Positions 13,310-17,161 of a stretch of DNA of 32,000 bases are shown piece after piece. How positions within the stretch are numbered: the stretch's first letter is position 1; each line of letters opens with the position of its first letter. The position numbers and the translations under genes were made by a program. Origin of the DNA: Candidatus Saccharimonadota bacterium (lineage in GTDB: Bacteria > Patescibacteriota > Saccharimonadia > Saccharimonadales > UBA4665). The notes under the pieces were generated by a model. The model was not told the origin of the DNA. It saw only the letters and a program-made list of their open reading frames with translations, and did no database searches. Where the stretch lies: positions 150,001 through 182,000 of the forward strand of contig CP025011.1 in assembly GCA_002952755.1 (NCBI GenBank), read 5' to 3'.

Positions 13310-14356
13310 ATGATGAATACATTGTTCAACGTCGGCGTTATAGGGCTCGGCGAGCAGGGCTGGGATAACCTGCTGCCAAGCCTGGCTATGATGCGTGAAG
13401 CGAACATCAAGGCTGTGTGCGATCTGAATACGAGCCGTCGTGCACTTGCTGCACGCAATTACGGTGCGGCGCCATACAAAAATTACCTTGAAATGCTGGA
13501 TCAGGAAAGACTGGATGCGGTAATCGTTGCCAGTCACCCTGCAGTACACACTGCCGTGCTACAAACGACACTCGTTCGCGGTATTCCAACGTTTATTGAG
13601 AAGCCTCCCACGCTTTCAACTGTCGAATTATGCGATTTGATCGATCTGAATAGGGCTTACAAAACACCAACGGCTGTCGGTCTAAATTTCAGTTTCACTG
13701 ATCCCGTCTTGTTCGTAAAGAACATGATGGCCAAACCGGAATTCGGCAACTTAACTTACCTGCGCATCTGCCACTACGGCAACAAGCCAACAGGCACGAT
13801 GTGGGGGCTAGATAGCAAGGCGCGTTCATTCCTGCTGTCGCAGGCAATCCATCCGTTAGGGCTAGTGTTCGACCTAGGCCGTCCCACCGACGACCAGCCA
13901 GTTATCCATGCCTATGATGGCCGCGCAGGATTGCTCATTGATGTCCATATGCGTTTGGCCGATCGTCGTGGCCACACCTTTACTGCAGAGTTGCTCACTA
14001 CCTCCTCGTCGCCATTCTTTGAATGGGAGTTGCAGCTTATTAGCGACAAGGGGGTGATGGTGAACATTAATTCGCTATGGGAAGTGGAAGTATATTCGCA
14101 GCACCGCTCAAACCCAATGATCGAAAACCAGAAATGGTGGAGGGATATGTGGCGGCCGAGCCCGTTGTCGGGTGGATTCAAACGCAACGGCTACCAAAAC
14201 CAATTTGCCGCCTTCTTGGCCAATAGTACCGCAAAACGGACAAGTCATACGAGCATAGAGAATATGGTTCCCTTATACACACTAATGGATGAAATGGAGG
14301 AGGCTTGTGAAAGCTACCAACTCAGTCCTCGAAAACAAGTTTATCAATATCGATAA
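13310..14356 (+). CDS. Gfo/Idh/MocA family NAD(P)-dependent oxidoreductase
   Basis: The N-terminal Rossmann motif is VGVIGLGEQG. The family EKP motif appears in TFIEKPPT. GGGGAG precedes the ATG and the 348-aa length is typical. Confidence 0.8.
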   Translation: MMNTLFNVGVIGLGEQGWDNLLPSLAMMREANIKAVCDLNTSRRALAARNYGAAPYKNYLEMLDQERLDAVIVASHPAVHTAVLQTTLVRGIPTFIEKPPTLSTVELCDLIDLNRAYKTPTAVGLNFSFTDPVLFVKNMMAKPEFGNLTYLRICHYGNKPTGTMWGLDSKARSFLLSQAIHPLGLVFDLGRPTDDQPVIHAYDGRAGLLIDVHMRLADRRGHTFTAELLTTSSSPFFEWELQLISDKGVMVNINSLWEVEVYSQHRSNPMIENQKWWRDMWRPSPLSGGFKRNGYQNQFAAFLANSTAKRTSHTSIENMVPLYTLMDEMEEACESYQLSPRKQVYQYR

Positions 14357-15449
14357 ATCGGATATCGCAGTAGTAGTGCATGCTGTGGAGGCGCGCCAGC
14401 TTGCTGGCACGGCTGATGTAGTAATGGCGTACGAGCACGAATTGCAGACGTACTTTGGGGTCAAACACGCGCTGGCCGTATCAAGTGGCACGGCCGCGCT
14501 GCACCTGCTACTGTACTTGTTTGATATCAAACAAGGCGACGAAGTGATCGTGCCGCCGACCGCGCCAATAATGTCGGCCTTGCCGATACTTGCGGTTGGT
14601 GCGGTGCCTGTATTTGTTGACGTCGAACCAGACTCGATGGCCTACGATCTGCAGGACTTGCGACACAAGATAACTGCTCGCACCCGGGCGATCGTAACTG
14701 TGCCAATGTGGGGCTATCCGACCCTGTTGGGCGGGCTGCGTGAAATCGCACGAAAACATCAACTGCCGGTTATCGAGGACGCGTCACACTGTCACGGCTC
14801 GCGCAGCAAAGAAGGCTTAACGGGAACGATGGGCGATATTGGTTTCTTTAGCACTCAGGAGCGCAAGCTGGTCGCCACGGGCGAAGGTGGCTTTATTCTG
14901 ACCAACAGTAATGACTATGCCGACCGCGTACGTGAAATTCGAGACTTCGGTAAGCCGGTACGCAAGACGCTGGAACTCCAGGACTATCTAGGTCGGTATG
15001 GTTATTTGTTCGGGCTCAACTTTAGATTGGCGGCCATGTCTGCTGCGCTGGGTATCTCACAAGTGCACAAGCTACCCGCCAAAATTGAACAGCGCACGGC
15101 CAATGCTGCGTGTCTGCGTGAGGAGTTATCCAACATGGCCTGGTTGCGTGAAATCCACGTAGACGACGCCACGACGCCCAATTATTACTCCATGCTCATG
15201 CGGGTGGATCACCCTACAATGAGCGCTAGCGGAGTGGCCCAAGCTCTGTACGAACAAGCCATCGTGTCCGATACATATCGGTTTGGCATCCAGCCTCTGT
15301 ATAAGTTGCCAATATTTAGCGCATACGAGACCGACTGTCCGAATGCAACCAGCTTGCTCAGCCGCATCATCACACTGCCTACGCACGAGGGTCTCTCAAT
15401 GGCCGATCTCAAACGGATTATTTCTGCCTTGCAAAACCTGGCACCGTAA
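14289..15449 (+). CDS. DegT/DnrJ/EryC1/StrS family PLP-dependent aminotransferase
   Basis: The motifs are AVSSGTAALHLLL, IEDASHCHG and FFSTQERKLVATGEGGFI (PLP-lysine context). The start is either the ATG at 14289 or the GTG at 14307 after GGAGGAGG. Either start overlaps the upstream gene by 50-68 nt. Confidence 0.8.
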   Translation: MKWRRLVKATNSVLENKFINIDKSDIAVVVHAVEARQLAGTADVVMAYEHELQTYFGVKHALAVSSGTAALHLLLYLFDIKQGDEVIVPPTAPIMSALPILAVGAVPVFVDVEPDSMAYDLQDLRHKITARTRAIVTVPMWGYPTLLGGLREIARKHQLPVIEDASHCHGSRSKEGLTGTMGDIGFFSTQERKLVATGEGGFILTNSNDYADRVREIRDFGKPVRKTLELQDYLGRYGYLFGLNFRLAAMSAALGISQVHKLPAKIEQRTANAACLREELSNMAWLREIHVDDATTPNYYSMLMRVDHPTMSASGVAQALYEQAIVSDTYRFGIQPLYKLPIFSAYETDCPNATSLLSRIITLPTHEGLSMADLKRIISALQNLAP

Positions 15450-15477
15450 CGTTAATTAATGATAGAGGGAGAGATCT

Positions 15478-15969
15478 ATGAGTTTACTTGAATCAACGGA
15501 AAAGCACGTTCGCCACTTTACCGTAACTGGGTATGTGATGAATAAAGACCACACAAAACTGCTACTAGTGCAGCACAAGAAGCTTGGCAAGTGGCTCCCT
15601 CCAGGCGGACATTTGGAAGCAAATGAGCTGCCGCACGAGTGCGCTATCCGCGAGACATTTGAAGAGACAGGCGTCCGAGTAATTCTGGTTAAAGATCCTA
15701 CCGAGCCGGACTTTACGCTCAAGGGTACGGTGGATGTGCAAATTCCTCGTCCGTATGCCCTGCAATACCAGTTAATACCCCAAAACAGCAAAGACCAAGA
15801 GCATATTCACTTGGATATGGTGTATGCGCTGGAGGCCGACGAGTCGGTTCTGCTGCAGGCGCAGGAGCGTGAAGTCGCCGGTGTTGAATGGTTGAGTAAA
15901 GAGGAGGTTTTGGCTGCCGACAATGTGTTTGATTCGGTGAAGAGCTTCGCTCGCCTTAACCTGAAGTAG
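15478..15969 (+). CDS. Nudix hydrolase
   Basis: It has a complete Nudix box, GGHLEANELPHECAIRETFEETGV (GX5EX7REUXEEXGU). GGGAGAG precedes the ATG. The product is 163 aa. Confidence 0.9.
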   Translation: MSLLESTEKHVRHFTVTGYVMNKDHTKLLLVQHKKLGKWLPPGGHLEANELPHECAIRETFEETGVRVILVKDPTEPDFTLKGTVDVQIPRPYALQYQLIPQNSKDQEHIHLDMVYALEADESVLLQAQEREVAGVEWLSKEEVLAADNVFDSVKSFARLNLK

Positions 15970-15978
15970 CGCGGATGT

Positions 15979-16683
15979 ATGGCAACTATTTTAGGCTTTA
16001 ACGGTAAGATAGGTTCTGGCAAGACGACTGCGGCCAGCAAGCTCCACGAGATTGTCGGGCCAGCACGCGCTGGGCATGTGGAATTTTCGGATGCCATGCT
16101 GGCGCTCGGGAATGACTGGATGAGCCGTATAGGGTGGGTGAACGCTGCTGGTCCGAGAGAAGTTGAAATGCTGCGGGCTGCAGCGTCAGAACGCTACGGA
16201 ATTACGGTGAGCGCCGAACAAGCCGCCCGGCTCGATGTGGGAGCATTAGCGGGCTATTTGGCAGCTCGGCAGTCGCTGCCAGTGGCTGAGCGCGCGGTAG
16301 TATTAGATAACAAGGAAGCGCACCGGCCGCTCTTGCAGTGGCTGGGGCACCAAATGATGACGCATGTCGATAGGCGCTTCTGGTCTCGAACCGTAGAAGC
16401 GACTGTGAGCGCCGAACGGGACATGGGCAAACACTTGGTGACGGTCGGTGGTGTGCGCCATCCGGAAGATGCAGATACTATCCATGGTCTCCACGGACTC
16501 GTTTTGGAGGTGGTCAGACCAGACGTTTCACATGAGCTCCAGACGCATCTGAGCGAAGGCGGCTTGCCACCGGAAAGGGTAGACGTCCAAATACATAACG
16601 ACGATGGTTTACTGGGCTTGCAACGAAAAATGGAACAGTTCTGGACCGATCTACAGGCCGGCACCCCATCTCGATTATATTAA
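15979..16683 (+). CDS. P-loop kinase resembling phage-type deoxynucleoside monophosphate (dNMP) kinases
   Basis: The Walker A motif is GFNGKIGSGKTTAA. The sequences HRPLLQWLGHQMMTHVDRRFW and VTVGGVRHPEDADTIHGLHGLVLEVVRPD match the R.LLQ.LG...R....W and DVRFpNE....GG..v.V.RP pattern I associate with phage dNMP kinases. Confidence 0.6.
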   Translation: MATILGFNGKIGSGKTTAASKLHEIVGPARAGHVEFSDAMLALGNDWMSRIGWVNAAGPREVEMLRAAASERYGITVSAEQAARLDVGALAGYLAARQSLPVAERAVVLDNKEAHRPLLQWLGHQMMTHVDRRFWSRTVEATVSAERDMGKHLVTVGGVRHPEDADTIHGLHGLVLEVVRPDVSHELQTHLSEGGLPPERVDVQIHNDDGLLGLQRKMEQFWTDLQAGTPSRLY

Positions 16684-16768
16684 AGCGCCAAGCGTGGCTC
16701 TGATACTCCCCATCCCCATTACAGCGACGCGGCGATTATTGTGCTGGTTGATATATAATATACTTACT

Positions 16769-17161
16769 ATGTCAACCCCTGAAGATTTTAACCCTTGGGA
16801 TACTTCTATTCCCGATCCCGTAGATCCAGAAGGGCCAATGATTGAAGATCCATGGCATGGCCCGGCGGCTGTACAGCGCATGTTAGACGTTCCGCCTATG
16901 CCACTTGGCGATGGTACATATTACCGCGCCGGTGGTTTCTACACTCAGGAGGGCAGCGTATATGTCGACCCCCTCGATCGGCCGGTGAAATTCTTTGGAA
17001 GGGTTAGAAGCACCAGTGCCTTCATGCGGGAAGTGAAAGACTTTGAAGAGTGGCGTCTCGCTAACAAGGAAGGTGAGTATGCGGCAACTATAACTCGAAG
17101 CCCAAAGGCAACAGAAGCGTATAGAGAAGAATGGTGTTGCACACAGCTTCCGGCAAACTGA
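16769..17161 (+). CDS. Hypothetical acidic protein, 130 aa
   Basis: I chose the ATG at 16769. The track's start at 16604 overlaps the kinase gene and adds a non-coding-looking extension. TATAAT at 16754-16759 lies 9 nt upstream. No family was recognised. Confidence 0.45.
   Translation: MSTPEDFNPWDTSIPDPVDPEGPMIEDPWHGPAAVQRMLDVPPMPLGDGTYYRAGGFYTQEGSVYVDPLDRPVKFFGRVRSTSAFMREVKDFEEWRLANKEGEYAATITRSPKATEAYREEWCCTQLPAN

Follow-up and report, generated by a model that had tools for sequence, protein, structure and literature searches.

Four genes lie head to tail on the + strand at 13310-16683 of the window, that is, of the whole 32,000-nucleotide (nt) stretch considered here, which derives from contig CP025011.1 of a Candidatus Saccharimonadota bacterium. 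In order these genes encode a Gfo/Idh/MocA dehydrogenase, a DegT aminotransferase, a Nudix hydrolase, and a T4-type deoxynucleoside monophosphate (dNMP) kinase. The same four co-occur in L001, L048, and L131, where L-numbers are labels of related loci gathered for comparison. As judged from sequence, and with a probability of roughly 0.55, they may be viewed as one operon for changes to a nucleotide's sugar ring, with a purine ribo- or deoxyribonucleotide as the most likely substrate. Their packing is tight, with dehydrogenase and aminotransferase genes overlapping by 68 nt, or by 50 nt if the latter begins instead at 14307 (a start taken from a gene caller's annotation of the identical contig), and with gaps of 28 nt between aminotransferase and Nudix genes and of 9 nt between Nudix and kinase genes.

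A sequence-only reading of this DNA had described five co-directional, tightly spaced open reading frames (ORFs), and all five are indeed present on the + strand at 13310-17161. That reading also had assigned the first four products to Gfo, DegT, Nudix, and dNMP-kinase-like families, and Pfam, PHROG, and PDB matches bear out every one of these assignments. The fifth ORF, orf5 (16769..17161, +), is a different matter. It lies 85 nt beyond the kinase gene, given a start at 16769, with a TATAAT-like box of its own approximately 10 nt upstream and with no Shine-Dalgarno sequence. Homologues of it were sought in the related loci and none was found, other genes instead sitting after the kinase gene in L001, L048, and L131. 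Its promoter-like box along with this lack of conservation rule out orf5 as a fifth operon member, contrary to what had been proposed, and it may be described instead as a neighbour of the cassette. Its 130-amino-acid (aa) product is acidic (isoelectric point 4.5; 22 D+E versus 13 K+R) and has no family match in Pfam, NCBIfam, PHROG, or PADLOC scans. The conserved unit, that is, is four genes plus a divergent upstream regulator rather than five genes.

The dehydrogenase gene (13310..14356, +) encodes a protein with GLGEQG and EKPP motifs (Pfam GFO_IDH_MocA, E 7e-18), which by its family would be dependent on nicotinamide adenine dinucleotide (NAD). Among PDB chains it matches 3m2t with an E-value of 8.6e-58, the remaining chains having E-values above 1e-9 and matching over the Rossmann half only. 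It is a full-length member of what can be described as a 3m2t-type subfamily, with invariant motifs EKPP, GxNF, HxxxKPxxxxW, FLLxQxIH, and SPxxxGxxxxGY. An exhaustive profile search of 1.84 billion representatives places approximately 210 clusters (50% identity) in this subfamily at E<=1e-30, so that the subfamily appears to be genuine yet small. Its members carry none of the canonical Pfam C-terminal domains that are present in Pur10-type Gfo proteins. An AlphaFold2 model of the protein, with a predicted local distance difference test (pLDDT) score of 90, was compared by Foldseek, giving a template modelling (TM) score of 0.87 to 3m2t, with 32% identity and common subfamily motifs. Characterised enzymes, i.e., GenD2/KanD2, inositol dehydrogenases, GnnA, and KijD10, all stand at TM scores of about 0.7 and at 13-20% identity, and the fold therefore indicates a sugar-ring dehydrogenase without naming its substrate.

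The aminotransferase gene (14289..15449, +, or from 14307) encodes a DegT/DnrJ/EryC1-type pyridoxal phosphate (PLP) enzyme (Pfam E 2.8e-81), with its PLP lysine located in QERKLVATGEGG. In the PDB it comes nearest to GDP-perosamine synthases (4e-43) and then to 2-deoxy-scyllo-inosose aminotransferases (1e-38), followed at greater distance by WbpE (3e-27), RifK (AHBA synthase, 9e-25), and NtdA (1e-18). The next gene (15478..15969, +) specifies a small, MutT-like Nudix pyrophosphohydrolase (Pfam NUDIX, E 2e-18) with a canonical Nudix box, i.e., GGHLEANELPHECAIRETFEETGV satisfies GX5EX7REUXEEXGU, with GHLEANELPHECAIRETFEETGV making up residues 44-66. The closest NCBIfam resemblances of this protein are to YtkD, NudB, and MutT-type nucleoside triphosphate (NTP) pyrophosphatases, these being weak and all under cut-off. 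The last gene of the four (15979..16683, +) encodes a kinase of the DNMK family (Pfam PF21448, 45.4 bits versus a cut-off of 27.1), with P-loop GKIGSGKTT. It matches PHROG 139, dNMP kinase, at E 1e-20, and the T4 enzyme Dnk (1dek) at E 3.9e-5, with 25-28% identity to the dNMP kinases of T4-like phages over approximately 90% of its length. The position of this gene, 3' of the Nudix gene, is conserved in L001, L048, and L131.

The triad and its accessory genes

Neighbourhoods of related dehydrogenase genes were collected from contig look-ups, GTDB genomes, annotated plasmids, and metagenome contigs, with in-house mapping of ORFs and of hidden Markov model (HMM) matches. The scan of GTDB genomes used narrow patterns and missed Photorhabdus, S. 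alboniger, C. violaceum, and also the genome from which the window comes. Tallied were the 30 loci that possess a subfamily Gfo gene with at least 3 kb of flank on both sides. An aminotransferase gene is a neighbour in 29 of these and a Nudix gene in 28, with both present in 27, and it is because of this constancy that dehydrogenase, aminotransferase, and Nudix hydrolase are seen as one inherited module. Other neighbours are less regular: phosphatases at 15 of the 30 loci, glycosyltransferases at 11, and small P-loop kinases at seven. In terms of the four-gene combination that the sequence-only reading had singled out, what is conserved thus is the Gfo-DegT-Nudix triad, which the DNMK gene joins in L001, L048, and L131.

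The three triad proteins co-vary among loci, and those of the window align over their full lengths with their counterparts in Endozoicomonas, Babeliales-type, Bacteroidota, Mycetohabitans, Pantoea, and Rhizobium loci, with identities of 28-76% for Gfo, 33-74% for DegT, and 28-69% for Nudix. Fusions join successive steps as well, i.e., Gfo::DegT (protein P0078), DegT::HAD, and HAD::Nudix, and where a class-III aminotransferase is swapped in, Nudix and phosphatase are retained. By these comparisons the window cassette would appear to be the kinase-type version of a widespread, uncharacterised module, consisting of 3m2t-type Gfo plus aminotransferase plus Nudix hydrolase, which seems to reach approximately 200 sequence clusters, many phyla, and at least 10 architectures. 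A phage database and IMG/VR yielded no phage record or viral contig with a subfamily Gfo.

The window type of architecture consists of a divergent regulator gene, then Gfo-DegT-Nudix-DNMK, with a variable fifth gene: none in L001, His_Phos_1 in L048, and in L131 (10397-11692) an NTPase_I-T (ITP/XTP-ase) gene plus that for a second Nudix, found 3' of the kinase gene. With Babeliales-type loci the order is Nudix-Gfo-DegT. This is followed in L004 by guanylate kinase and DUF7222 genes, and the triad there also has a Ham1-like ITPase gene (1442-1996) some 6 kb upstream of it. The metagenomic loci L057, L058, and L062 instead have a TLC/NTT nucleotide transporter gene directly 3' of the triad (9153-10466, 4750-6036, and 9319-10626, respectively). 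These transporters, with Pfam TLC E-values of 1.5e-25 and 8e-21, are 428-437 aa in length with 8-10 predicted transmembrane segments, and are 66-79% identical to one another. The versions bearing them probably belong to intracellular bacteria. An autotransporter gene is seen upstream in L057.

Still other versions are larger or more scattered. In Endozoicomonas a plasmid-like stretch carries Gfo, DegT::HAD, and Nudix, and in Bacteroidota the order is DegT-Nudix-Gfo-DegT-(GT1)-HAD-(MatE). A conserved cluster of about 10 genes surrounds the triad in Mycetohabitans, Pantoea, and five metagenomic loci (L070-L072, L078, and L079), adding a second DegT, an FAD oxidoreductase, HAD, a fatty-acid-desaturase-like protein, the purine nucleoside phosphorylase MtnP, a further Nudix, a binding protein, and an MFS transporter. 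It is found at L042 8998-18969, on a Mycetohabitans rhizoxinica megaplasmid, and at L043 8438-18963, on a plasmid of Pantoea ananatis PNA 97-1R; terms for its enzymes are absent from a review of Pantoea antibiotic clusters. In Rhizobium the triad lies opposite glycosyltransferases, an AAA_28-like ATPase, HAD, a histidine phosphatase, a nucleotidyltransferase, and two MFS transporters; the AAA_28 (NadR-type kinase) matches, there and in L049, are weak. The phosphatases of these various relatives are of HAD, His_Phos_1, or Exo_endo_phos type. Further architectures combine the triad with a GT2 glycosyltransferase plus a 12-transmembrane-segment, MFS-like protein. Another recurrent companion, seen with the triad in several architectures (L049 8904-10259, L051 3365-4120, L064, L073, L076, L077, and L045 9472-10830), is an approximately 450-aa, mostly soluble protein for which neither Pfam nor the PDB has a match, and in one of these loci, a 70%-identical relative of the window, its gene is found directly 3' of DegT.

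What thus has been observed is the order of the genes, the families to which they belong, the joint inheritance of the triad, and the spectrum of accessory genes. What that spectrum suggests is that the specific accessory genes all are nucleotide- or nucleoside-handling, as predicted from their sequences, even though they come from unrelated families. A nucleotide substrate is favoured over a cell-surface sugar because the variable partners are mostly of this kind, and the strongest single argument is that an NMP-kinase family (NMP being nucleoside monophosphate) is exchanged for another, or instead for a nucleotide antiporter, at the same position. Guanylate kinase, MtnP, and ITP/XTP-ase show a purine bias as well, which is why a purine nucleotide is suggested. 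The nucleotide-centred view of the sequence-only reading consequently holds up as far as DNMK, guanylate kinase, TLC/NTT, MtnP, and NTPase_I-T neighbours are concerned, but it is not helped by the glycosyltransferases.

A proposed nucleotide pathway and its rivals

From this point on we infer: substrate, position of amination, order of steps, product, toxicity, and biological role. The MutT-like Nudix hydrolase would set the level of monophosphate by moving nucleotides between triphosphate and monophosphate forms (NTP to NMP plus pyrophosphate), ahead of or after the ring chemistry. The dehydrogenase would oxidise a ring hydroxyl to a ketone with NAD+ and the aminotransferase would transaminate that keto intermediate, the two together turning a ring C-OH into C-NH2. 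By analogy to Pur10, it would be the 3'-OH that most likely is oxidised, with the 2'-OH possible as well. The fusions described above suggest that a labile keto intermediate is channelled between Gfo and DegT. The DNMK-type kinase then would phosphorylate a monophosphate to a diphosphate, either supplying substrate to the pathway or instead returning the aminated NMP to the di- and triphosphate pool. Were the kinase to re-activate aminated NMP, then the product would be retained as a nucleotide, without release of a nucleoside. The phosphatases and exporters of other versions, on the other hand, suggest a secreted aminonucleoside. A predicted non-canonical purine NTPase, as in L131, would fit self-protection against an NTP analogue.

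The cassette could serve to antagonise a host or a competitor, to defend against phages, or to supply building blocks. With the kinase- and NTT-linked versions the product may be an amino-deoxy nucleoside di- or triphosphate which remains a nucleotide and is deployed as such, either within the producer against phages or, ready-made, via TLC/NTT into a host, although this more specific scenario is an unlikely one. Such a nucleotide could be a 3'-amino RNA chain terminator or, with a deoxynucleotide substrate, a 3'-amino-2',3'-dideoxy DNA terminator. A deoxynucleotide substrate is hinted at by the dNMP-kinase family of the kinase together with a DNPH1-like domain of the regulator (below).

Much would follow were the nucleotide reading true. 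The module would yield new antimetabolites, either nucleosides or nucleotides, the orphan structure 3m2t would gain a function, and the forms linked to a kinase or a transporter would be evidence that such compounds can be kept or delivered by bacteria as nucleotides rather than as prodrug nucleosides. Deployment of toxic nucleotides, if that too were true, would represent a new antimetabolite strategy for host-dependent bacteria. The main interest, however, is that a whole family of such clusters is uncharacterised, along with the kinase- and transporter-linked forms that suggest use of a product at the nucleotide level.

A number of points weigh against a nucleotide substrate. For every member of the module, 3m2t included, a substrate is one predicted from sequence. 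The fold comparison, based as it is on a model, does not separate nucleotide, NDP-hexose, glycoside, and inositol dehydrogenases, and the best characterised relatives of the aminotransferase, by sequence, use GDP-sugars and inososes. Glycosyltransferases occur in more than a third of the tallied neighbourhoods (11/30), and HAD phosphatases of S6PP type are frequently found close to the triad. The 30 loci themselves are phylogenetically non-independent, and were annotated by in-house ORF calls and HMMs. A kinase next to a phosphatase, as seen in L048, blurs the idea of a product that is kept as a nucleotide. Lastly, Pur chemistry is not transferable by homology, since the window proteins are not Pur10 or Pur7 orthologues.

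It is an amino-sugar pathway, one resembling that for kanosamine, which survives these considerations best among the alternatives, as a doubtful though real possibility. The dehydrogenase in this case would oxidise C3 of UDP-glucose, UDP-GlcNAc, or glucose-6-phosphate, the aminotransferase would aminate, and the Nudix hydrolase would split the resulting NDP-amino-sugar to sugar-1-phosphate plus NMP, with the kinase then recycling NMP or phosphorylating the sugar. The product would feed into a glycoside or a small, secreted amino-sugar antibiotic. Most characterised Gfo partners of DegT enzymes do work at hexose C3 (GnnA, KijD10, GenD2, and KanD2, all structural neighbours of the window protein), GDP-perosamine synthase is closest to the aminotransferase, HAD Hydrolase_3/S6PP phosphatases and GT1, GT2, or GT8 glycosyltransferases accompany the triad in several architectures, and a list of Gfo plus DegT plus phosphatase plus kinase mirrors RifL/K/M/N, which likewise speaks against nucleotides. 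Yet the aminotransferases NtdA, RifK, and WbpE are distant relatives in terms of E-values. The kinases, furthermore, are of NMP-kinase families (DNMK and guanylate kinase) rather than ROK- or hexokinase-type, and TLC/NTT transporter, MtnP, and ITP/XTP-ase are hard to fit to a hexose pathway. No flippase or polymerase is found near the window operon, and no glycosyltransferase, nucleotidyltransferase, or exporter adjoins it, the sequence-only reading having likewise seen no glycosyltransferase, flippase, or sugar nucleotidyltransferase in the operon. We know of no kanosamine pathway that includes a Nudix enzyme, which also counts against this alternative. Were it nevertheless true, then the operon would represent a small amino-sugar cluster of the ordinary kind, apart from its unusual Nudix step.

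Placement of the dehydrogenase and aminotransferase among UDP-GlcNAc(A) 3-dehydrogenases and WbpE-type enzymes was named by the sequence-only reading as what would speak against nucleotides. The dehydrogenase, however, scores 47.7 bits with the UDP-GlcNAc(A) 3-dehydrogenase model NF040723, under the cut-off of 450, GnnA matches its structure model with a TM score of 0.71 at 18-19% identity (inositol dehydrogenases being just as good), and WbpE stands well behind the best match of the aminotransferase. Neighbourhoods with both glycosyltransferases and flippases had been named in the same sense, and here the outcome is divided: the polysaccharide and lipid A context genes, i.e., those for flippase, polymerase, and acyltransferase, were seen neither in the window nor among the tallied families of the 30 loci, but glycosyltransferases, as noted, do occur.

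An anti-phage role is quite unlikely. It would involve an infection-induced, chain-terminating amino-NTP, like the 3'-deoxy-3',4'-didehydro nucleoside triphosphates (ddhNTPs) of viperin in principle, with the Nudix hydrolase as a safety valve, and a dedicated kinase beside a nucleotide-modifying enzyme does recall CMPK2 beside viperin. Transposase, recombinase, and large helicase genes in L004, toxin-antitoxin genes in the plasmid-like L003, a HerA-like ATPase in L008, and the PIN toxin and phage-tail-like genes that flank the window cassette all are consistent with this role. But PADLOC matches no system and no radical-SAM viperin, with Gfo, DegT, kinase, orf5, and neighbours having no match at all and the Nudix hydrolase alone matching a candidate family, PDC-S07 (9e-8). 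The module also was not found in collections of phage and viral sequences, there is no evident infection sensor, many relatives resemble instead classical biosynthetic clusters with exporters and glycosyltransferases, and a literature search on a defence role was without result.

Least probable is an aminocyclitol pathway of inosamine type, with an inositol dehydrogenase and an inosose aminotransferase, as with StrI/StsC or MocA/MosB, plus a kinase and a Nudix hydrolase acting on phosphorylated or pyrophosphorylated inositol intermediates: The N-terminal half of the dehydrogenase does find its best NCBIfam resemblance in IolG (E 1.4e-14), inositol dehydrogenases are among its structural neighbours, 2-deoxy-scyllo-inosose and scyllo-inosose aminotransferases match the DegT protein at E 1e-38, and some Nudix enzymes, weak matches of the one here, hydrolyse diphosphoinositol polyphosphates, but the IolG match is of 53.8 bits versus a cut-off of 355 and covers the Rossmann half only, no inositol-phosphate synthase lies beside the triad in the loci examined, Inositol_P there is confined to L075 and to an end of L049, and the accessory genes are nucleotide-specific.

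The divergent regulator and the rest of the window

The putative regulator is encoded divergently, upstream of the operon (12336..12917, -), and has a C-terminal ribbon-helix-helix (RHH) domain (RHH_1, E 5e-4). It is 74-85% identical to the products of same-position genes in L001, L048, L051, and L053, a degree of conservation above that of the enzymes. DNPH1/Rcl is a 2'-deoxynucleoside 5'-phosphate N-hydrolase, and the regulator's N-terminal domain matches nothing else in the PDB. All 12 matches of a profile are DNPH1 structures, at non-significant E-values of 0.15-1.2 (0.08-1.2 over all of these comparisons). The similarity falls at that family's signature segment, where GYE reads GYQ in the regulator. 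A structure model has a pLDDT of 45 and is unusable. The regulator possibly is nucleotide-sensing, with the DNPH1 resemblance serving only as a hint in that direction.

Between regulator and dehydrogenase genes is a structured element (13140..13218, -) consisting of two hairpins (13187-13203 and 13154-13179) plus a U-run, which gives a terminator-like match, with a conserved extended -10 box, TGGTAGCAT, upstream. The element occupies the same place in the window, L001, L048, L051, and L053 with differing stem sequences, and eight of 10 hairpin pairs are altered on both sides, i.e., are compensatory. Pairing is retained in 98% of cells versus at most 44% in slid controls, none of 500 shuffles matches the score, and the predicted fold has an energy of -23.3 kcal/mol (z -5.1). 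A search of Rfam returned no matching family. The element is a candidate small RNA of approximately 60 nt or, instead, a candidate leader terminator of the regulator gene. A plain RHH operator was considered for this intergenic palindrome as well, and was rejected because the palindrome's arms covary, in contrast to an RHH domain that hardly varies. Separate from it, at 13020-13075, are AT-rich palindromes, TTGATTTACTCATCAA and ATAATATACGTATATTAT, which are kept in L001, L048, and L051 and may serve as operators or as parts of a divergent promoter.

The rest of the window is ordinary bacterial chromosome, including genes for SHMT, MurB, a MurA-like protein with a helix-turn-helix (HTH) domain, an MMPL transporter, a cohesin/dockerin pair, and one tRNA. 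Immediately 5' of the cassette, at 10874-12271, a PadR regulator and a membrane protein are encoded side by side, along with a PIN-domain (VapC-like) toxin, in a stretch with a GC content of 0.43-0.47, below that of the flanks. On the other side (18410-20101, -) is the gene for a 563-aa protein with C-terminal PHROG tail-spike matches, which over 43% of its length shares 30% identity with a minor tail protein of a Streptomyces phage. No further prophage genes were seen in the window, and a Hyaluronidase_1 protein is encoded in the L001 neighbourhood. The MurA-like protein (1750-3276, -) is unusual in that an HTH_3 DNA-binding domain at its N-terminus is fused to an EPSP-synthase/MurA-like domain. 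At 23991-26347 a polysaccharide deacetylase with CBM_4_9 and dockerin domains is followed by a cohesin-domain protein, which together make up the small cohesin-dockerin pair. A weak match to the gammaproteobacterial rimP leader (26318-26433, -; 37.7 bits versus a gathering score of 47) probably is due to chance.

Known pathways and systems compared

Amination of the sugar of a nucleotide is, to our knowledge, known for few pathways, i.e., those of puromycin, A201A, cystocin, 3'-amino-3'-deoxyguanosine (ADG), and 2'-amino-2'-deoxyadenosine, all of them, so far as we are aware, discovered via one enzyme lineage or by chance. A literature search for the enzyme combination seen here found nothing beyond puromycin, A201A, cystocin, and ADG, and likewise found nothing on the Pantoea cluster. 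The module would represent a second, independent lineage of the same three-enzyme logic. In the first lineage, Pur10, Pur4, Pur7, and Pur3 are associated with NAD-dependent oxidation of a nucleotide 3'-OH, transamination, and Nudix-mediated conversion of NTP to NMP (PMC11641026), and these enzymes along with adgB-E turn ATP or GTP into 3'-amino-3'-deoxy nucleosides (PMC11641026, PMC9239236). The sequence-only reading had known of no description of such a combination outside of actinomycete antibiotic clusters. This is refuted by the compact adgA-E operon of Photorhabdus luminescens, which consists of an MFS gene plus pur10, pur4, pur7, and pur3 homologues and makes ADG (PMC9239236). Gsk, Gmk, and Ndk of the target cell turn ADG into a chain-terminating GTP mimic, with phosphorylation of ADG monophosphate by the target's guanylate kinase the key second activating step (PMC9239236).

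A pur reference was located by way of homologues of the PAC resistance protein and then the contigs encoding them. A Kitasatospora plasmid match, suspected of being a pur cluster, turned out to be a different biosynthetic gene cluster. Recovered was L047 1088-12570, from Salinifilum ghardaiensis (CM137101.1), a non-Streptomyces actinomycete, in which the puromycin-type cluster is complete, with genes for an M28 peptidase (NapH-like), Nudix (Pur7), Gfo (Pur10), DegT (Pur4), a methyltransferase (Pur5), a Pur6-like protein, Inositol_P (Pur3), PAC at 69% identity, and an O-methyltransferase (DmpM-like). A transposase is inserted there between pac and the O-methyltransferase gene. The window dehydrogenase is 22% identical to the Pur10-type protein of L047 over 179 aa (25 bits, Rossmann half only), while for the Nudix hydrolase versus the Pur7-type protein no significant pairwise alignment was obtained (E 2.1). 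The aminotransferase is 28% identical to the Pur4-type protein (106 bits, E 1e-29), and is no closer to it than to many other DegT enzymes, perosamine synthase (4e-43) among them. The kinship to Pur10 and Pur7 at which the sequence-only reading had pointed thus goes no further than the superfamily level. By sequence, the module would resemble Pur and Adg in its working but is not a member of that lineage, with the three superfamilies seemingly recruited independently.

The Pur module and the window cassette, that is, share the same three superfamilies and a proposed logic, but the cassette is without Pur3, Pur5, Pur6, or PAC equivalents. A Pur3/AdgE-type monophosphatase was sought across 12336-17456 using Pfam and NCBIfam, and neither Inositol_P nor any other phosphatase domain was found. 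The adgA-E operon is similarly compact and non-actinomycete, with a Gfo-type dehydrogenase, a DegT-type aminotransferase, a Nudix hydrolase, and a purine NTP substrate. Its adgB-E genes, however, are reported pur homologues, whereas the window Gfo and Nudix proteins are unrelated to the pur type of L047 (AdgB-D being compared here via that reported homology). The N-terminus of AdgB, MKLVIIGC as given by a cloning primer (PMC9239236), is not among the top 150 profile-search matches, which is uninformative. The adg nucleoside is secreted, given a monophosphatase and an MFS exporter in that operon. The window by contrast has a dNMP kinase and neither phosphatase nor exporter.

With kanosamine, NtdC/NtdA/NtdB or RifL/RifK/RifM/RifN, a Gfo plus a DegT protein also install a 3-amine via a 3-keto intermediate, with phosphatase and kinase steps. 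Those pathways are without the Nudix hydrolase that the window operon possesses, and NtdA and RifK, as already described, are distant from its aminotransferase. Their HAD phosphatase (NtdB/RifM) has no HAD counterpart in the window, and in place of their sugar kinase (RifN) is a member of the DNMK family. The sole close relative of the dehydrogenase with a structure is 3m2t, a Chromobacterium violaceum 'probable dehydrogenase' that is a structural-genomics entry, the name of which gives no assigned function.

Phage T4 supplies a final comparison, as the window kinase is a member of the T4 gp1 (dNMP kinase) family. In T4 a dCTPase (gp56) makes an NMP, a dCMP hydroxymethylase (gp42) modifies that NMP, and gp1 then sends it on to the NDP and NTP pool. 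The logic of this flow is the same as that proposed for the window cassette, a likeness which derives from established knowledge of T4. The T4 enzymes nevertheless act on the base, whereas the proposed target of the cassette is the sugar ring, and the T4 genes are those of a phage, whereas the cassette is chromosomal and was not found in phage collections.

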